Assembly (NCBI GenBank): GCA_016205145.1
Contig: JACQJH010000002.1
Location: forward strand, 180,001 to 212,000
Direction: 5' to 3'
Origin: Candidatus Iainarchaeum sp.
GTDB taxonomy: Archaea > Iainarchaeota > Iainarchaeia > Iainarchaeales > JACQJH01
Length of the DNA stretch: 32,000 bases
This document shows, piece by piece, positions 7,053 through 29,903 of this stretch; within the stretch, counting starts at the first letter, position 1, and each line of letters begins with the position of its first letter. Both the position numbers and the translations under genes were made by a program. The notes beneath the pieces were generated by a model that did no database searches, was not told the DNA's origin, and was given only the letters and a program-made list of their open reading frames with translations.

Positions 7053-7370
7053 CTAAAAATCTTTAAATAATCGTTTGCCCAAATCCAGAACCCTACCATG
7101 CACTGCCAAAACGCCTTCGCGTGCAAGCAAACGCCGCTTCACCTTGGCGCCTTTCGCAAACCCGCCCAGCCCACCATCCGATTTAATGACGCGGTGGCAG
7201 GGAACGTGCGGCATGCCGGGACTTTTGTTCAAGGCGTTGCCCACTGCCCTGAACGCAGCCGGATTTCCAACAGCTTTTGCTATTCCGGCGTACGTGGAAA
7301 CCTTTCCAGCGGGAATTTTCTTGCACGCATTCCACACCTTTTCCTGAAAGGTTTGTTTTTTCGCCTCCAT
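7053..7370 (-). CDS. ogt: Methylated-DNA-protein-cysteine methyltransferase, single (C-terminal) domain
   Basis: 105 aa from the ATG at 7370, 1 nt after the nadD stop. Contains the IPAGKVSTYAGIA helix-turn-helix and the PCHRVI active-site cysteine motif. The longer track ORF to 7463 would overlap nadD. Confidence 0.8.
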   Translation of the reverse strand: MEAKKQTFQEKVWNACKKIPAGKVSTYAGIAKAVGNPAAFRAVGNALNKSPGMPHVPCHRVIKSDGGLGGFAKGAKVKRRLLAREGVLAVHGRVLDLGKRLFKDF

Positions 7371-7371
7371 T

Positions 7372-7884
7372 TCAATCACGATAAAGCTTTTTCGCGAGAA
7401 TGAATTTTTCAACCGCTTCCGGCACAAGCCCTTCAAGCGGCAGGCCCTTTTTTGCAAGCGCACGAATCCTTGTGCTGTTCAGATTCCCGCCGAAATCAGG
7501 CACGACGCACACGGAAATTTTTTTCAACAGGGCTTTTGCATTTTTCCAACGATGCAATTGCCGCTTGGTTTTTGTGCTCACGACAAAAATGAATTCATGT
7601 TCCGGAAATTTTTTCAGCAGAAAATCTACCAAGTCAAGCGTATGGCTTGTCCTGTTCCTGATTTCAAAATCCTTGACCTTGAATTTTGCGTTTGCCTTTG
7701 CCGCAAGGCGGAGCATGGCAAGCCTGTGCTTTGGAAGAGAGGGCTGCCTTTTCTTCCACGGGTTCCTGAAAGCGGGAACAAACCACAATTCGTCGGCGCG
7801 CGTCTTCTTCAGCGCGGCCTTTGCCGCGGCCAGATGCCCGTTGTGCACAGGATCGAAGGTTCCGCCGAACAGCGCGATTTTCAT
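7372..7884 (-). CDS. nadD: Nicotinate/nicotinamide mononucleotide adenylyltransferase, bacterial NadD type
   Basis: 170 aa with GGTFDPVHNGH (the (H/T)xGH motif) and a C-terminal LNSTRIR (ISSTxIR-like). ATGA start/stop overlap with nadC. Confidence 0.85.
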   Translation of the reverse strand: MKIALFGGTFDPVHNGHLAAAKAALKKTRADELWFVPAFRNPWKKRQPSLPKHRLAMLRLAAKANAKFKVKDFEIRNRTSHTLDLVDFLLKKFPEHEFIFVVSTKTKRQLHRWKNAKALLKKISVCVVPDFGGNLNSTRIRALAKKGLPLEGLVPEAVEKFILAKKLYRD

Positions 7885-8732
7885 TCCATCCCCTGGCCCG
7901 CTTTAACCACTTGAAGGGAGAAATCAATTGACTTTGCACCGGTTGTCAGGCAGCCCATTGAAATGAAATCCGGCCCTGCGGCGGCAAACTCTTTCAGGTT
8001 CTTGAAATTTATGCCACCGGAAAGCTCGATTTTTGCGTTTGAAATTTTTCGGAGTTCCGCAACGGTTTCCTTCGCATTCTCCGCAGAAAAATTGTCAAGC
8101 AGAATCATGTCGGGGCCCAGTCCTGCCGCGGAAACCGCCTCTTCGCGGGACGAAACTTCTATTTCAATCGTCTTTGACGCGCCGTATTTCTGCCTTGCCG
8201 CAAAAACCGCGGCACCGGCATCGGAAAAAAATCCGAGATGGTTGTCCTTGAGCAGGACGAATTCGGAGAGGTTTTTCCTGTGCGGCCAGATGCCTGCAAC
8301 TTCGGCGGCCTTCTTGTCGAACAGGTTGAAGCCGGGCATTGTCTTGCGCGTAAGGGCGGGCATCGCCTTCGAACCCGTTCCTGCGGCAACGCGTTTTGCC
8401 TTTGCGCAGGCGGTTGCCACGCCGGACATCCTGCCCAAAACATTGAGCGCGGCCCTTTCAACCCCAAGGATGTTGGTGTTGAGGCCGGTTATTTCCGCGA
8501 CAACTTTTCCGGATGAAATCTTCTGTCCGTCCTTCGCCTTCGCCGCAAAAACAAGTTTTTTTGATTCGAAGAGGAACCGCGCTTCCTCCAGGCCGGCTAG
8601 AACGCATGGCTGCCTGCAGGTTATCTGCGCCGTGCAAAGCCTTTCGTTCAGCAGCGCGGATGAAACGTCCCCGCTTCCTATGTCGTCCTTCAGCAATGAG
8701 GACAGTTTTTCCTGCATTTCCTCGGAAAGCAT
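7881..8732 (-). CDS. nadC: Nicotinate-nucleotide (quinolinate) pyrophosphorylase
   Basis: N-terminal LKDDIGSGDVSS and a C-terminal TIEIEVSS...MILLDNF...ELSGGI typical of QPRTase. The ATG at 8732 has GGTG 7 nt upstream; the track start at 8777 is TTG. Confidence 0.85.
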   Translation of the reverse strand: MLSEEMQEKLSSLLKDDIGSGDVSSALLNERLCTAQITCRQPCVLAGLEEARFLFESKKLVFAAKAKDGQKISSGKVVAEITGLNTNILGVERAALNVLGRMSGVATACAKAKRVAAGTGSKAMPALTRKTMPGFNLFDKKAAEVAGIWPHRKNLSEFVLLKDNHLGFFSDAGAAVFAARQKYGASKTIEIEVSSREEAVSAAGLGPDMILLDNFSAENAKETVAELRKISNAKIELSGGINFKNLKEFAAAGPDFISMGCLTTGAKSIDFSLQVVKAGQGME

Positions 8733-8777
8733 TTTCGGCACCGGAAAAAACCAACTGCAAAAACAAAATCCAGACAA

Positions 8778-9533
8778 TCAAATTTTGACGATGAACGGGA
8801 ACGCGAGCTTGTGCGCGTTCAGCCTGTTGCGTTCGAGCACCCGCTCCACAAGTTCCGGGGAAAACTTTTTTTTCACTTCCGCTGCGGGCCGCTTTTCGTC
8901 AAACAATGCGGTGAGGATTTTGTCCAGCTCGGAGTAAGGCGCGCCCAGTTCGCCTTCATCGGTCTGGCCGTCCCACAGGCCCGCGCTCGGCGCCTTTGAA
9001 ATTATTTTTTGCGGCAGGTCCACTGCTTTTGCGACTGCGAAAACCTGCGTCTTGTAAAGCGATGCAATCGGCAGGATGTCGCATCCGAGGTCGCCGTATT
9101 TTGTGGCATATCCAAGCAGGGCCTCGCTCCTGTTGCCGGTTCCTGCGACAAGCGCGTTGTGCGCGTTCGCGAAATTGTAAAGGCAGGCCATCCTGACGCG
9201 TGCCGCAACGTTTGCCTTCGAAATCCCGGTCTGCTTCCACGGCAGTTTTTCAAATTCCCCTGCCGCCCCGCCGATTTCAAAGAGTTCGCACCGCATTCCA
9301 AGGGTTTTTGCAAGTTCCATTGCATCTTCAACATTGGCGCGGTCCCTGCCCCTGTCCACGGGCAGTATGATGCCGGAAACGTTTTCTTTTCCGAGCGCGT
9401 CAACAAGGATTTTTGCGACAAGGCTCGAGTCGATGCCGCCGGAAAGGCCGACAACCGCGTTCCTTGCGCCGGCTTCGGTGAAATACAACTTTGTTTCCGA
9501 AACAATCCTGCCGAACAACCCGGATTCATCCAT
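8778..9533 (-). CDS. nadE: NH3-dependent NAD+ synthetase
   Basis: 251 aa with the GLSGGIDSS PP-loop and the TGNRSEALLGYATKYGD motif. GGTGG lies 6 nt upstream of the ATG. Confidence 0.9.
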   Translation of the reverse strand: MDESGLFGRIVSETKLYFTEAGARNAVVGLSGGIDSSLVAKILVDALGKENVSGIILPVDRGRDRANVEDAMELAKTLGMRCELFEIGGAAGEFEKLPWKQTGISKANVAARVRMACLYNFANAHNALVAGTGNRSEALLGYATKYGDLGCDILPIASLYKTQVFAVAKAVDLPQKIISKAPSAGLWDGQTDEGELGAPYSELDKILTALFDEKRPAAEVKKKFSPELVERVLERNRLNAHKLAFPFIVKI

Positions 9534-9571
9534 GACAAGCCACCATGTGAATGAATTAAAAGAACTCAGAC

Positions 9572-9583
9572 GGTTTTAAATAT
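9572..9583 (-). promoter_or_regulatory. TATA-like element (ATATTTAAAACC) 40-50 nt upstream of the nadE ATG
   Basis: A/T-rich box. The predicted leader of ~17 nt would contain the GGTGG SD. Confidence 0.4.
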
Positions 9584-9594
9584 TCAAAATTTGC

Positions 9595-9607
9595 GGACAA
9601 TTTGTCC
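9595..9607. promoter_or_regulatory. Perfect 6-1-6 palindrome GGACAATTTGTCC upstream of nadE (candidate operator)
   Basis: Read directly from the sequence. It lies 12 nt upstream of the TATA-like box in gene sense. It is near-identical to GGCCAATTTGGCC at 28763-28775. Confidence 0.4.
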
Positions 9608-9618
9608 TGAAAAGGCGC

Positions 9619-9639
9619 TTTTTGGCATTTTATTGGCCA
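9619..9639 (-). repeat. Motif TGGCCAATAAAATGCCAAAAA (contains the 12-mer TGGCCAATAAAA and the 16-mer shared with leuA upstream)
   Basis: Exact 12-mer copies also occur at 12221-12232 (-) and 28771-28782 (+). An exact 16-mer copy occurs at 5769-5784. Confidence 0.5.
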
Positions 9640-9664
9640 TAATGTATTCAAACCGGACAAAAAA

Positions 9665-10909
9665 TCATGCCCATTTCGCAAGTGCCGCGGCAAGCTCGCG
9701 GTGCGATTTCGCGTATTCCGCCGCCGGAACCTTTTCCATTGCCGCGTCGACCGCCTGCCTCAATGCCCTCGCGCCGGCAAACGTTCCATTCGGATGGCCG
9801 TGGATTCCGCCGCCGGTCTGGATGACAAAATCCCTGCCGAAAATTTCAAAAAGTTGCGGGACGTGGCCGGGATGCAGGCCGCCGGAAGCGACAGGCAGGG
9901 TCTGGTTCAGGCCATGCATCGGTTTCCTCAAAGCATCGCAGTGCGCCAAGACTTCATTGCGCGTTTCAGACATTTTTCCGACGGCAGTGCCGACGTGCAA
10001 CTGGTCGCCGCCCACAAGCCTGACAAGCCGCGCAAGGGAAAGCATTGCAATTCCATGCTTCGGATTGCGGTCGAACGCGGCATGCTGGGCGCGGTGGCAG
10101 TGGATTGCGCATTTCAGGTTGAGGTCACGCACGGTCTGGAATGCAGCCCAGCCCGCGGTCAGAAAGTCGACCATCACGTATTTTCCGCCGTGCTTTTCAA
10201 TGAATTCCGCGCGCTTCACCATTTCATTGGTTTCCGCCGTGATGTTCAGGAAAAAGGCCTTTTTTTCGCCGGTTTCCTTTTCGATTTTGTCACCCAGCTT
10301 GAGGCCCTCGTATGCGCGCTCGTAAAATGGGTTGAATTTCTGGTTTGAAAGGTTCTCGTCGTCCTTGAGGAAATCGCATCCGCCAAGCCACGCTTCGGCG
10401 CAAAAGCCGAGGTGGTCTTTCAGATTCAGGCCCAGCTTGGGCTTTATGACGGTTCCGATGAGCGGGCGCTTTTTGACCTTCATGAACCTGCGGATGCCTG
10501 CAATGCCGAACTTCGGGCCCTTGAACTGCTTAACCATTCCTTTCGGAAAATATATGTCCTCAAGCCGCAGGTTTTTCAGGCCGCCGAGGCCGAAAACATT
10601 GCCGGCAATCGAGCTTAAAATGTTCGGAACGCTGCCTGTCTCGAACAGTTCAGGAGGATATGCGATCTGGATCGTGTTTCCCTTTATGCTGTAAACCTTC
10701 GCCCCAAGGCGGTCCATGTAAGGCTTGACTGTTGTGAGCTTGGTCCAGGTGCCGGTCGAGGATTCAGCTGCGACCCCGCCGCAGGCTTCCCTGAAAGTGA
10801 GCTCGGACGGATGGTTTTCCACGCGAAAAGTGCAGACGAGTTCGGACGGCTTGGGCTTGTAGCCTTCGTGAATATAAGCGAGATACTGCGGTTGTGGCTT
10901 GTGCGACAT
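9665..10909 (-). CDS. rbcL: Ribulose-1,5-bisphosphate carboxylase/oxygenase large subunit, archaeal form III
   Basis: 414 aa from the ATG at 10909. Catalytic signature is intact: KPKLG, GGCDFLKDDENL (carbamylated Lys), HCHRAQHAA, QLHVGTAVGKM, VASGGLHPG and QTGGGIHGHPNG. A T6 tract follows the stop directly. Confidence 0.9.
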   Translation of the reverse strand: MSHKPQPQYLAYIHEGYKPKPSELVCTFRVENHPSELTFREACGGVAAESSTGTWTKLTTVKPYMDRLGAKVYSIKGNTIQIAYPPELFETGSVPNILSSIAGNVFGLGGLKNLRLEDIYFPKGMVKQFKGPKFGIAGIRRFMKVKKRPLIGTVIKPKLGLNLKDHLGFCAEAWLGGCDFLKDDENLSNQKFNPFYERAYEGLKLGDKIEKETGEKKAFFLNITAETNEMVKRAEFIEKHGGKYVMVDFLTAGWAAFQTVRDLNLKCAIHCHRAQHAAFDRNPKHGIAMLSLARLVRLVGGDQLHVGTAVGKMSETRNEVLAHCDALRKPMHGLNQTLPVASGGLHPGHVPQLFEIFGRDFVIQTGGGIHGHPNGTFAGARALRQAVDAAMEKVPAAEYAKSHRELAAALAKWA

Positions 10910-25705: not shown

Positions 25706-26410
25706 CTAACCCCATCTTTCAATGCGGATGTTTTCCTTTGCAACTCCCGCCTGGCCGAGCAGTTCGTTGAGGCTTGCCACCATTTCATTGGGCCCGCAGA
25801 TGTAGAAGACCTTTCCATCAAGCCCCCCGATGGCCTCTGCGATGCAGTCCGGGTGGAAGCGCCCGAGCAATCCATTCCAGCCATCCGGTGTTTCCCTTGT
25901 CAGGGTCCAGATTGCCTTGACATTCTTGTTTGCCTTTTCAAGCGCGTTCAGCTCGTCAAAATAAATCAGGTTTTCGCGGGTACGGGCGCTGAAAAGTATG
26001 AAGACCTTGGTCGGCAGGCGCTTCTCCGTTATGTAGTGCGCCATGCACCGGAATGGGGCGATGCCGGTGCCACCCGAAACAAGGACAATGCACTTGTCGT
26101 TTTCGCCCAGGACAAAGTGGCCGGCCGGGCCTTTCGCGACAACCGCGTCCCCCGGCTTCGCCCCGAACAGGCGCGACGTGAATTTTCCGACCTTGTTGCA
26201 GGTTATCTCAAAAAACCCCTTTTTAGTTGGCGGGGATGAAATCGAATACGAGCGCACGGTCGCGGAATCATCCGGAAAACTGAGCATTACAAACTGCCCC
26301 GGCCTGAAATCGAAGTCAACGCCTTCCGGGATTGCGAAGCGGAACGTTTTGGTGTCAAGGGCCTCGTCTTTTATTGAGAGGATTTTTGACTCGAACCTGG
26401 TGAAAGCCAT
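25706..26410 (-). CDS. FAD/NAD(P)-binding oxidoreductase, ferredoxin-NADP+ reductase (FNR-like) family
   Basis: 234 aa. FRPGQFVML, RSYSISS (FAD binding), GGTGIAPF (NAD binding) and a C-terminal YICGP. GAGGTG lies 6 nt upstream. Confidence 0.8.
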   Translation of the reverse strand: MAFTRFESKILSIKDEALDTKTFRFAIPEGVDFDFRPGQFVMLSFPDDSATVRSYSISSPPTKKGFFEITCNKVGKFTSRLFGAKPGDAVVAKGPAGHFVLGENDKCIVLVSGGTGIAPFRCMAHYITEKRLPTKVFILFSARTRENLIYFDELNALEKANKNVKAIWTLTRETPDGWNGLLGRFHPDCIAEAIGGLDGKVFYICGPNEMVASLNELLGQAGVAKENIRIERWG

Positions 26411-27655: not shown

Positions 27656-28717
27656 TTATGCCTGTTTCTTCTGCTGTTGCAGGATGTAAATGTGCTGCCT
27701 TGGGTCCGCCAAAAACGGTTTTTTGAGGACCAGGCGTTTGCGGACGAGGACGTTGAGCGCTCTGCGCACTGTGCGCGCGGGAAGGCCTGTCGCGTTGATT
27801 ATTTCCTTCTGCGTGAGCGAGGACTCCATTTCAAGTATTTTGAGGACAAAGCGCGCCGAGGGAGGCGCGTCGCTTGCCTCGATCCCGGATTCAAGGGATT
27901 TCGGCATTTTCGTGCGCTTGCCGGGCGAGGCGAACGAAAGCCTGCTCAGCCTTGCAAGCAATGCCGGAAACCTTGATTTCTGGCACGACAATGATTCGGA
28001 AACCTTCAGCCGGGTCTGGCCGTCAACCACAACCTCGCATGGCGCCGCGGAATTGATTCCGAAAAGCTCTATTTTCGAGTCGTCGCCGACAACCAGCGGC
28101 TTTGTGTCAGCCATCGAATTTATGGGCGTTATGAGCAGTGCCTTCGCGCTCGGCTGGATTATCGGGCCGCGCGCTGAAAGCGAGTAAGCCGTGCTGCCGG
28201 TCGGGGTTGAGACGATCGCGCCGTCCGCACTGTCTTTCCACAGGTATTCCGAATTCACTTTCAGGCCGTATCTCATTATGGTGGCGCTTTTCATCGAACT
28301 CATCACGATTTCGTTCAGCGCAAGGGGCAGTTCATTGCCGTCTGCAATGCCTGCAATCCTCGTGCGCTCCTCGACCACAAAATCGCCTGAAAGTATGACC
28401 GGAAGCTTCTTGTCAAAATTCTCGTAATGCAGGGCCATGAGATAGCCGACTTCGCCGCAGTTGACGCCGAAAACCGGCACCCGCTTGGTCCCAAGGTCCC
28501 TGAAAATGTGCAGCAATGTTCCATCACCGCCGAACGCAAGCACGAGGTCGACGTCAAATTCGGCAATCGGAATGGAATATTTCGATGGAAAAAATTCCCT
28601 GGCAACCCTGACCTTGACGCCGTGCTTTTGAATCACTTTTATCGCGCGCTTCGCGGTTTTCTTGGCGAGGTCGTTCCGGAAATGGCCTGCAATGCCCACC
28701 GAGGAGATTTTGCGCAT
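27656..28717 (-). CDS. nadK: NAD kinase fused to a C-terminal winged-helix (MarR/TrmB-like) domain
   Basis: 353 aa from the ATG at 28717; the track start at 28807 is TTG. GGDGT (aa 63-67), LNEIV (aa 134-138) and TPTGSTAYSLSARGP (aa 171-185). After a ~25-aa linker comes SLTQKEIINATGLPARTVRRALNVLVRKRLV...DPRQHIYIL (aa ~286-346; nt ~27680-27862). Confidence 0.85.
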   Translation of the reverse strand: MRKISSVGIAGHFRNDLAKKTAKRAIKVIQKHGVKVRVAREFFPSKYSIPIAEFDVDLVLAFGGDGTLLHIFRDLGTKRVPVFGVNCGEVGYLMALHYENFDKKLPVILSGDFVVEERTRIAGIADGNELPLALNEIVMSSMKSATIMRYGLKVNSEYLWKDSADGAIVSTPTGSTAYSLSARGPIIQPSAKALLITPINSMADTKPLVVGDDSKIELFGINSAAPCEVVVDGQTRLKVSESLSCQKSRFPALLARLSRLSFASPGKRTKMPKSLESGIEASDAPPSARFVLKILEMESSLTQKEIINATGLPARTVRRALNVLVRKRLVLKKPFLADPRQHIYILQQQKKQA

Positions 28718-28762: not shown

Positions 28763-28775
28763 GGCCAATTTGGCC
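28763..28775. promoter_or_regulatory. Perfect 6-1-6 palindrome GGCCAATTTGGCC in the nadK/nadA divergent spacer (candidate operator)
   Basis: Read directly from the sequence. In nadK sense it lies 12 nt upstream of the TATA-like TGTTTTTTATTG (28738-28751), which is ~25 nt from the nadK ATG. It overlaps the TGGCCAATAAAA 12-mer. Confidence 0.4.
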
Positions 28776-28847: not shown

Positions 28848-29903
28848 ATGCCTGAAATGCCGAACCGGAAAAGCGTGGCACTGGCAGTGACTGAGCAGTT
28901 GAAACGGGCCGGAGAGCCCTCCGCCCCTGAAATCGAAGCTGAGGCCGCAAGGCTGTTCGAAAAGCTGGGCAAAATCAGCCATTCCCTTGCCGATTGCAGG
29001 AAGTTCGCGAAACTGACGCTTAAAATTAACAGGCTCAAAAAGCTCAGGAATGCCACGATTCTCGCGCACAACTACCAGAGGCCGGAAATAATCTTCGGCA
29101 TAGCCGACTTTGTCGGCGATTCCCTCGGCCTTAGCGTTAATGCCGCCGGAACTGATGCGGATGAGATTGTTTTCTGCGGCGTGCGGTTCATGGCGGAAAC
29201 CGCGAAAATCCTGAGCCCGAAAAAGAAGGTTTTGCTGCCGGACACGGAAGCGGGATGCTCGCTTGCCGAAAGCATAACCGCAAAGGACATACGCGAACTG
29301 AAAAGGCAGCACCCCGATGCAGCGGTCGTCTGCTACGTGAACACGACCGCAGCCATAAAGGCAGAATCGGACATCTGCTGCACTTCCGCAAACATACGGA
29401 AAGTGCTTGACTCCCTGCCCAACAAAAAGGTAATTTTCGTGCCCGACGAGTTCATGGCAAAAAACGTGGCCGAAACCACTGACAAGGAGATAATCCGGTG
29501 GAAAGGCAGGTGCATTGTCCACGAAACGTTCAGGGAAGAAATGATCGGCGATTTCAGGGAAAAGCATCCCGGACTCAAGGTATTGTCGCATCTCGAGTGC
29601 TCGCCTTCCGTCATCGGCATTTCCGACATGGCAGGGAGCACCTCCGAAATGATTGATTTCGTGCGGAAAAGCGATGCCAAGGATTTCCTGCTTGCGACCG
29701 AATGCGGCCTCTCGGAAATGATGCAGGCGAACTTTCCGGAAAAAAACTTTGCCGGCACGTGCCAGATTTGCCCGTACATGAAAAAGATTAACCTTGAAAA
29801 CGTGCTCAAGGCGCTTGAAAACGGAAAATTCGGGATAACCGTTCCGGAAAAAACCCGGCGCAAGGCGAAAAAGTCCCTTGCCAGGATGATGGCGCTCGCT
29901 TAA
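28848..29903 (+). CDS. nadA: Quinolinate synthase
   Basis: 352 aa from the ATG at 28848. NATILAHNYQRPEI, three-repeat architecture with conserved Cys (EAGCSLAE, VCYVNT, HLECSP, CQICPYMK). The upstream part of the track ORF overlaps the nadK promoter and start. Confidence 0.9.
   Translation: MPEMPNRKSVALAVTEQLKRAGEPSAPEIEAEAARLFEKLGKISHSLADCRKFAKLTLKINRLKKLRNATILAHNYQRPEIIFGIADFVGDSLGLSVNAAGTDADEIVFCGVRFMAETAKILSPKKKVLLPDTEAGCSLAESITAKDIRELKRQHPDAAVVCYVNTTAAIKAESDICCTSANIRKVLDSLPNKKVIFVPDEFMAKNVAETTDKEIIRWKGRCIVHETFREEMIGDFREKHPGLKVLSHLECSPSVIGISDMAGSTSEMIDFVRKSDAKDFLLATECGLSEMMQANFPEKNFAGTCQICPYMKKINLENVLKALENGKFGITVPEKTRRKAKKSLARMMALA

Follow-up and report, generated by a model that had tools for sequence, protein, structure and literature searches.

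The nadK-wHTH gene and its product

The stretch analyzed here, called the window throughout, comprises 32,000 nucleotides (nt) of Candidatus Iainarchaeum sp. (assembly GCA_016205145.1, contig JACQJH010000002.1, positions 180,001 to 212,000). On its minus strand lies a gene, nadK-wHTH, whose predicted product joins an NAD kinase (NadK; NAD is nicotinamide adenine dinucleotide) to a C-terminal winged helix-turn-helix (wHTH), and which is a candidate regulator of NAD genes. The open reading frame (ORF) runs from an ATG at 28717 to a stop codon at 27656–27658 and codes for 353 amino acids (aa). An alternative TTG start would extend it to 28807; this version was rejected, as it would cover the predicted operator and the probable promoter, and homologues align from the ATG. 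An AlphaFold2 (AF2) model built with 51 homologues has a mean predicted local distance difference test score (pLDDT) of 89.5 and shows a NadK fold at residues 1–257, a disordered linker at 263–276 and a winged helix at 286–346. An earlier note, made from the letters of the stretch, had described an uninterrupted 353-aa frame here, with NadK hallmarks, a Ser/Pro/Lys-rich linker of about 25 aa, a C-terminal winged helix, a divergent nadA gene and a perfect palindrome in its own promoter region, and the present analysis agrees with it on each of these features.

The N-terminal module has the two-domain fold of the NAD kinases (PF01513 and PF20143) and scores above the curated cut-off of both profiles: Pfam NAD_kinase matches residues 20–112 with 52.7 bits (cut-off 25.5), and NAD_kinase_C matches residues 134–242 with 86.3 bits (cut-off 23.7). 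A Foldseek search of the whole model against the PDB returned only NAD kinases (7qvs at 2.4e-27, 1suw, 1u0t; template modelling (TM) score to the target about 0.8), and phmmer against the PDB found 7mh7 at 4.4e-30. The GGDGT motif with the catalytic Asp (G63-G64-D65-G66-T67, all present), the NE motif (residues 135–136) and the glycine-rich TPTGSTAYSLSARGP (TPTGSTAY) line up with those of Pseudomonas aeruginosa NadK. In the alignment of the fusion family Asn-135 is invariant, and Asp-165, Gly-166 and Thr-171 to Thr-176 are invariant or at least 90% conserved. The NE, DG and TPTGSTAY-type motifs line the NAD site in published NadK structures. By fold and motifs the protein is a bona fide NadK. 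None of the NCBIfam NadK equivalog cut-offs is reached by it (best 163 bits vs 326), and because these matches are all sub-threshold it is placed in a divergent NadK subfamily.

The canonical NadKs of A. fulgidus (1suw), M. tuberculosis (1u0t) and P. aeruginosa (7qvs) share the two-domain fold and the motifs, but none aligns beyond about 260–290 columns and none carries a DNA-binding extension; nor was a DNA-binding tail seen in any solved NadK in the Foldseek search of the whole model against the PDB (about 250–310 aligned columns). The archaeal NADP-phosphatase/NadK fusion (NF010678) also has the NadK fold and motifs, but its partner is a phosphatase and not a wHTH.

Predicted fold and structural similarity identify the C-terminal tail as a MarR-like winged helix, and profile matches point the same way. 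When scanned alone, it marginally passes two Pfam cut-offs (HTH_IclR 23.0 vs 22, HTH_24 22.8 vs 21.9), and many weak matches to HTH families converge on it; it stays under the cut-offs for MarR_2 (24 vs 27) and TrmB (15.9 vs 25.6). A profile of the tail family run against PDB sequences finds MarR proteins at 1.3e-4, with the wing D-x-R included. The topology assigned by DSSP is α1-β1-α2-α3-β2-wing-β3 in both the full model and a model of the isolated tail (pLDDT 89.9). With Foldseek, the tail matches the operator-DNA complexes of MarR (5h3r), HpaR (7el3), MftR (8ylg) and MepR (4lll) at a TM score of about 0.8. It resembles the MarR family, as represented by the E. coli MarR-DNA complex and MepR, in the DNA-binding lobe, which superposes over about 70 residues, in the wing D-x-R and in the palindromic operators. 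The likeness ends there: with about 65 residues the tail is a wHTH core alone, covering the central 70 residues of MarR proteins of about 140 residues, and the N- and C-terminal helices that build the MarR dimer and ligand pocket are absent from it in the models and the structural alignment. Both dimerization and sensing would be left to the NadK module. In the predicted recognition helix Arg-315, Thr-316 and Arg-318 are invariant or nearly so in the family alignment.

The fusion is found well beyond the window. Two independent Logan assemblies (L001, L002) and an NCBI metagenome-assembled genome labelled 'Candidatus Diapherotrites' (P0001) encode the very same protein, and the sole extra locus from the metagenome scan, in a JGI metagenome (L087), has a copy that is 90% identical. 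About 60 database proteins of 327–364 aa cover 81–99% of the query. Uninterrupted fusions occur in more than 40 reference genomes from many phyla, with GTDB representatives in the Micr-, Woese-, Nano-, Brock-, Thor-, Prometh-, Baldr- and Borrarchaeota as well as in Nitrososphaeria, Thermoproteota and cultured Vulcanisaeta. Judged from this distribution, which also takes in Aenigmatarchaeota, the NadK-wHTH fusion is old and widespread. Public names for its members are inconsistent ('NAD(+)/NADH kinase', 'sugar kinase', 'kinase', 'winged helix-turn-helix transcriptional regulator'), and recognition of the family would correct this annotation.

A frameshift or chimeric assembly that joined nadK to a small wHTH gene would fit the occurrence of stand-alone versions of the same wHTH in Euryarchaeota, and also the separate adjacent ORFs for NadK and wHTH in some draft Vulcanisaeta and Aenigmatarchaeota assemblies. 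Mis-assembly, for which the earlier note had proposed a check, is excluded by the three independent assemblies with the same 353 aa and the near-identical copy in a fourth. The linker frame is open, in frame and free of stop codons, and together with the uninterrupted fusions of the reference genomes this leaves an artefact with next to no probability. In the split cases (L021 and L037, both Vulcanisaeta distributa JCM drafts, and L024) the two parts lie in different frames, and other Vulcanisaeta loci (L034, L074) have NadK and wHTH on one ORF; the splits are likely sequencing frameshifts and not split genes.

A palindrome in the control regions of NAD genes

Among the 38 fusion loci of reference genomes with enough upstream sequence, nadA, often as nadA-nadC, lies divergently upstream of the fusion gene in 26. 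A pncB-like gene, pncA, nadB, nadD or nadE adjoins the fusion in five more, so that 31 of the 38 have a NAD gene as neighbour. By comparison, in the 39 loci that lack a tail joined to NadK on one ORF, nadA never stands beside the tail. Among close relatives, nadA, the fusion and nadB occur together in L083, nadA lies beside the fusion in L089, and a divergent operon faces the fusion in L084 (nadA-nadE-nadC and an NMN adenylyltransferase (NMNAT) gene) and in L090 (pncB-like, pncA, nadE, nadA).

In the window, an automated search of the nadK-wHTH/nadA intergenic region found no inverted repeats at the settings used. A palindrome was spotted by eye and then confirmed by pattern search: GGCCAATTTGGCC lies between the two start codons, and GGACAATTTGTCC lies upstream of nadE, the first gene of a tightly packed minus-strand operon, nadE-nadC-nadD, that continues into an ogt-like gene. 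The pattern GGNCAATTTGNCC has two exact matches in the window, where 0.05 are expected, and none of 100 shuffles reaches two. The 9560–9640 fragment had already been marked as of interest in the earlier note; it holds the second predicted operator, and the link to nadE-nadC-nadD is new here. A third, low-confidence and non-palindromic match inside an ORF for an FNR-like oxidoreductase is probably due to chance.

The exact pattern of the window, GGNCAANTTGNCC, does not recur in distant relatives, where the operator has diverged to GGCAA-N3-TTGCC. This form is carried by the nadA/fusion intergenic regions of other phyla, for example as GGCAACATTTGCC in Thorarchaeota, AGGCAAATTTTGCCT in Woese- and Nanoarchaeota and GGCAATAATTGC in Brockarchaeota, and the TATA-like box on the nadA side is often flanked by a second, degenerate copy. 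Comparison thus gives two forms of the palindrome, GG[C/A]CA-N3-TG[G/T]CC in the lineage of the window and GGCAA-N3-TTGCC in most other archaea. When up to one mismatch is allowed, GGCAA-N3-TTGCC occurs 38 times in 14 kb of −300 to +60 regions and 26 times in the other 581 kb, that is, 2.7 against 0.045 per kb, an enrichment of about 60-fold.

Because the palindrome was first spotted by eye, an unbiased enumeration was run of all 5-mer inverted repeats with spacers of 0–8 in 29 intergenic regions, with 200 matched control sets. GGCAA-N3 ranks first and is found in 17 of the 29 regions; the next pattern, in five regions, corresponds to its inner part. No pattern reaches more than three regions in any control set. 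The survey of the fusion for which the earlier note had called thus shows it to be widespread, conserved and associated both with nadA and with a conserved palindrome.

In the clade of the window protein, the query clade, GGNCA-N3-TGNCC lies at −57 to −67 from the start codon of the fusion in all ten members, five with an exact GG[C/A]CA-N3-TG[G/T]CC and five with one mismatch, and the motif of operator 1 recurs at the matching −57 to −59 position in L083, L084, L085, L087, L088, L089 and L092. The individual sites read GGCCAAATTGGCC (window and L087), GGTCAAAATGGCC (L088 and L089), TGCCAAAATGGCC (L083), GGCCATTTTGGCC (L084), GGACAAAATGTCC (L090), GGACAGTCTGTCC (L091), TGCCAAAGTGGCC (L092) and AGCAAAAATGGCC (L085). 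The GGACA..TGTCC variant of operator 2 precedes the fusion gene in L090 and L091, so both variants of the window are used elsewhere in the clade upstream of the fusion. The site keeps its distance even where no NAD gene adjoins (L085, L091, L092), and this constancy argues for autoregulation.

The palindrome also varies together with the protein. The recognition helix reads RTVR-R-[AS]-[LA] in the query clade and RTVR-[Y/H/N]-AL in the other clades, and residue 319 (Arg in the window protein, Tyr, His or Asn elsewhere) tracks position 4/10 of the operator: all 17 high-scoring sites paired with Tyr, His or Asn have A/T there, and both sites paired with Arg have C/G. This covariation is the pattern expected if the recognition helix reads the palindrome.

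A candidate NAD regulator and its alternatives

We interpret NadK-wHTH as an operator-binding regulator of NAD genes, with a probability of roughly 0.75. The earlier note had put forward a candidate NAD(P)-responsive regulator, and comparative genomics strongly supports this proposal as far as the control of NAD genes is concerned. The computations show the architecture and how well it is conserved, its association with NAD genes, and an operator with its position and its covariation with the protein; DNA binding, ligand response and kinase activity are inferred. With one site in the nadK-wHTH/nadA control region and one upstream of nadE-nadC-nadD, the protein would regulate its own gene as well as the de novo route to NAD. 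In the proposed mechanism it would be an enzyme-derived transcription factor, in which the NadK module dimerizes and senses a nucleotide and the flexible linker tethers the MarR-like winged helix. NadKs are usually dimers or tetramers, and two winged helices of such an oligomer would read the two half-sites of the 13-bp palindrome. With NAD(H) or NADP(H) in the conserved NAD site, perhaps alongside ATP, the affinity for DNA would change, and the outcome would be feedback on the supply and synthesis of NAD and on the level of the regulator itself.

That a pyridine nucleotide is the effector is a somewhat less secure part of this proposal, although we favor it. Repression and activation are nearly balanced, with a slight lean to repression with NAD(P) as co-repressor. 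Upstream of both the fusion gene and nadE, the site lies a few nucleotides upstream of AT-rich TATA-like boxes (TATA box and transcription factor B recognition element (BRE) were assigned by eye). In L084 the only site, 16 nt away from the start codon of nadA, must overlap the core promoter of that gene, so that occlusion is implied. With a suitable effector, negative feedback would result from either sign.

Several observations weigh against a regulator that acts through this operator. The covariation of operator and helix is one evolutionary switch, so it is phylogenetically confounded and of limited statistical weight. The centers of the half-sites are about 8 bp apart, closer than in typical MarR operators. 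L003 and L004, the best tail matches in reference genomes, have neither an upstream site nor a NAD neighbour. On the nadA side the position of the site varies: in the window about 44 nt separate it from the putative TATA box downstream, in Thorarchaeota it abuts the TATA box, and in L084 it is placed as described above. No single steric mechanism fits all three promoter geometries. Finally, the stand-alone wHTH relatives have GGCAA-like sites near non-NAD genes, so that the motif alone does not define a NAD regulon.

The protein could instead be an ordinary NAD kinase whose wHTH serves in oligomerization, in regulation of the kinase or in binding of a partner protein or RNA, while another factor reads the palindrome. 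The catalytic motifs, which are all kept, would suit such a role; winged helices also make protein contacts, and the tail weakly matches the TFE, RPC82/RPC34 and Cullin models. This reading leaves unexplained why the best structural matches of the tail are MarR-family domains solved on operator DNA, why almost no variation is seen across the family in the putative recognition helix or the wing D-x-R, and why the palindrome changes together with that helix and stands at a fixed distance from the fusion gene even where no NAD gene is adjacent. Half of the family, moreover, is without GGDG, yet the wHTH is kept. We consider an ordinary kinase quite improbable.

The same loss of GGDG bears on a different alternative, in which the protein acts solely as a regulator: the NadK module of the window protein would be a catalytically silent sensor, and NADP would be made by a second NadK elsewhere in the genome. 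Across 51 fusions the mean pairwise identity is 0.50 for the wHTH, 0.41 for the NadK C-domain, 0.28 for the N-domain and 0.20 for the linker; the wHTH is thus the most conserved segment, and the ATP-side N-domain is the least conserved of the folded domains. GGDG[TSA] is unbroken in 22 members and degenerate in the other 29 (DDGT, SDRF, DDNL, DNAF and others), including P0008 (GAGNRA) and P0007 (GGDKT) of the query clade. The NAD-site motifs persist where GGDG is degenerate, as expected for a sensor, and by analogy this is the way in which enzyme-derived regulators decay into sensors. In L012 a fusion with intact GGDG coexists with a second NadK about 6 kb away. In the window protein, by contrast, the GGDGT, NE and glycine-rich NAD-site motifs are all kept, and no second NadK was found within the 32 kb; DPANN genomes are small, and single gene copies are common in them. 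A regulator without kinase activity is consequently unlikely here, if clearly less so than an ordinary kinase. Since the motifs are all kept and the window has no second NadK, an enzyme and regulator in one is the economical reading of this protein. Because its catalytic motifs are unbroken, it is probably also a working NAD kinase, and hence a bifunctional 'trigger enzyme'.

Canonical-length NadK paralogues were seen 4–6 kb downstream of the fusion at two loci, L012 (16069–16836) and L031 (14296–15078). The former also has nadD and nadE, and the latter has pncB, pncA and nadE.

In Bacteria the regulators that control the transcription of NAD synthesis genes (NadR, NiaR and NrtR) are well mapped. 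In full-text searches of the literature neither a NadK-wHTH protein nor any archaeal NAD regulator was found to be described (most subscription-journal papers lie outside the scope of these searches). This is in line with the earlier note, which knew of no such regulator, and suggests that NadK-wHTH is the first candidate NAD regulator in Archaea, as far as the literature searched extends. NadK would be a sensor fold not previously reported in the role of a cofactor regulator of the trigger-enzyme type. As is characteristic of trigger enzymes, a pathway enzyme is fused to a DNA-binding domain, and a conserved predicted operator precedes the pathway genes and the gene itself across genomes.

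In NrtR the enzyme domain is catalytically degenerate in many members, and the ligand is ADP-ribose. The NrtR report (PMC2330246) describes a winged helix placed C-terminally to an effector domain of enzymatic origin, control of NAD synthesis and salvage genes, and discovery by comparative genomics, all of which resemble the present case; NrtR differs in its Nudix effector domain and in being a bacterial family. NadR, likewise bacterial, consists of an N-terminal HTH, an NMNAT and a ribosylnicotinamide kinase (RNK), with no NadK domain and no homology to NadK-wHTH.

The closest analogue is RbkR (Rodionova et al. 2017, PMC5397151), an archaeal riboflavin kinase/regulator for which an electrophoretic mobility shift assay, an enzyme assay and a DNA-bound crystal structure provide validation. 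It too joins a kinase of a cofactor pathway to a winged helix, and it is bifunctional. Its operators were predicted by comparative genomics, lie before the pathway genes and its own gene a few nucleotides upstream of BRE/TATA, and vary between lineages, and its DNA binding is modulated by the nucleotide substrate and product. RbkR differs in its CTP-dependent riboflavin kinase fold, which is unrelated to NadK, and in its pathway and operator, and the regulatory role of NadK-wHTH is a prediction. As predicted here, NadK-wHTH would work like RbkR, NadR, BirA and NrtR, with an enzyme or former enzyme domain and a DNA-binding domain serving the same cofactor pathway, but it is a member of none of these families, because only NadK and HTH families are detected in it. 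Pfam and NCBIfam searches of the whole protein found no Nudix domain (NrtR), no NMNAT and RNK domains (NadR) and no 3H domain (NiaR).

A broader proposal, with slightly less than an even chance in our estimate, is that much of Archaea (DPANN, Asgard and TACK-type lineages, including cultured Vulcanisaeta) has in NadK-wHTH its missing master regulator of NAD homeostasis. The protein would then be a true trigger enzyme, whose NAD-to-NADP active site reports substrate and product occupancy to the wHTH, and would have become a pure NAD sensor where a second NadK was acquired. If so, one polypeptide would couple the flux from NAD to NADP with transcription of the genes for NAD synthesis and salvage. 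As a candidate regulator of NAD genes in general, the family would fill the archaeal gap in NAD regulators for much of the domain, including Asgard and genome-reduced DPANN, and NadK would join the short list of enzymes reused as sensor domains of transcription factors. The testable predictions are a 13-bp operator, two lineage variants tied to one residue of the recognition helix, a regulon of de novo and salvage NAD genes, and cultured hosts in Vulcanisaeta.

Neighbouring genes and relatives of the winged helix

The features of the window are listed in Table 1.

Table 1. Coordinates of features in the 32,000-nt window, with bit scores given against the cut-off of the model
Feature	Position	Strand	Description and evidence
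nadK-wHTH gene	27656..28717	-	353 aa, NAD kinase + linker + winged helix; ORF, Pfam/NCBIfam, AF2
NadK catalytic/sensor module	27944..28717	-	aa 1-258 (N-domain 1-125, C-domain 126-258); Foldseek, phmmer
GGDGT motif	28517..28531	-	aa 63-67, unbroken in window protein; read from sequence
Ser/Pro/Lys-rich flexible linker	27869..27943	-	aa 259-283; pLDDT <50 at aa 263-276
MarR-like winged helix-turn-helix	27680..27868	-	aa 284-346; Pfam, profile vs PDB, AF2, Foldseek
Predicted recognition helix ARTVRRALNVLVR	27740..27778	-	aa 314-326; helix in AF2 model
Operator 1 (predicted) GGCCAATTTGGCC	28763..28775		exact palindrome; 45 nt from nadK-wHTH start codon, 72 nt to nadA
Operator 2 (predicted) GGACAATTTGTCC	9595..9607		exact match; 61 nt upstream of nadE start codon
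Third motif match GGACAAAGTGGCC	26110..26122		matches GGMCANNNTGKCC; non-palindromic; inside FNR-like oxidoreductase ORF 25706-26410
nadA, quinolinate synthase	28848..29903	+	divergent from nadK-wHTH; Pfam NadA 1.3e-115; NCBIfam NF006878 385 bits vs 294
nadE, NAD+ synthase	8778..9533	-	Pfam NAD_synthase 2.2e-76; NCBIfam NF010587 279 bits vs 255
nadC, quinolinate phosphoribosyltransferase	7881..8777	-	Pfam QRPTase_N, QRPTase_C; TIGR00078 245 bits vs 198
nadD-type nicotinate-nucleotide adenylyltransferase	7372..7884	-	abuts nadC; Pfam CTP_transf_like; TIGR00482 125 bits vs 112

NadA has an N-terminal extension of about 55 aa (28848–29020), the Pfam and NCBIfam matches beginning at aa 54–59, and the NadA calls of close relatives are likewise long (336–356 aa vs about 300–310 in the models). 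For nadC, an ATG at 8732 is probably the start codon. The adenylyltransferase belongs to the NadD type of Bacteria, with TIGR00482 above its cut-off, and not to the NadM type of Archaea; at 170 aa it is short, aligning to only the first 130 or so positions of models with about 194–220. A 105-aa ORF with the DNA-binding domain of 6-O-methylguanine DNA methyltransferase (7053–7370) abuts the end of nadD on the same strand and is probably co-transcribed with the NAD operon. A gene for the large subunit of ribulose-1,5-bisphosphate carboxylase/oxygenase (RuBisCO), which we take as form III, occupies 9665–10909, and its end lies just upstream of the promoter and operator of nadE. A RuBisCO-like ORF, recognized by reading its sequence, is also the immediate upstream neighbour of the fusion gene in the Micrarchaeota locus L003.

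At some loci the fusion gene is followed by genes for 3-hydroxy-3-methylglutaryl-CoA reductase and other mevalonate functions, with no NAD genes (L085/L086 11152–12441, L091 9301–10536, L092 2133–3422). These loci form one sub-clade, the relatives of P0012, and the upstream operator is kept. In L015 (Nitrososphaeria) an exact GGCAAAAATTGCC at position 2083 lies 97 nt upstream of an MFS/Sugar_tr transporter gene (670–1986) that is convergent with the fusion gene; the product could be a niacin transporter of the regulon. Extra near-consensus sites within a few kb of the fusion in Thor- and Promethearchaeota lie mostly inside ORFs, and the regulon was not extended to them.

An exhaustive search with the tail profile gave 699 clusters (50% identity) at E ≤ 1e-10, and the best 150 of these mix C-terminal fusions (about 320–360 aa) with stand-alone proteins (57–150 aa). 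In the reference genomes the stand-alone wHTH (57–135 aa) is typical of Halobacteria, Methanosarcina, Methanothrix, Methanoregula and Methanocella (L042–L082, for example L049 9959–10258, L060 9953–10219 and L052 10019–10219). For the haloarchaeal proteins a link to OxsR (HVO_2970, PMC9426492) was considered; the motif reported for OxsR, CGGnCGnGCG, is unlike the palindrome. In methanogens the non-fused wHTH sits among ORFs that resemble cysteinyl-tRNA synthetase, O-acetylhomoserine sulfhydrylase and NifS/ThiI, as read from their sequences, that is, among functions in cysteine/methionine metabolism and sulfur transfer. GGCAA-N3-TTG.C-like sites occur just upstream of the methanogen wHTH gene itself, which may belong to a separate regulon with a similar operator. 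Larger proteins also carry the winged helix: P0209 (684 aa) has it at the N terminus, and P0121 (642 aa) and P0256 (537 aa) each contain seven matched stretches of it.

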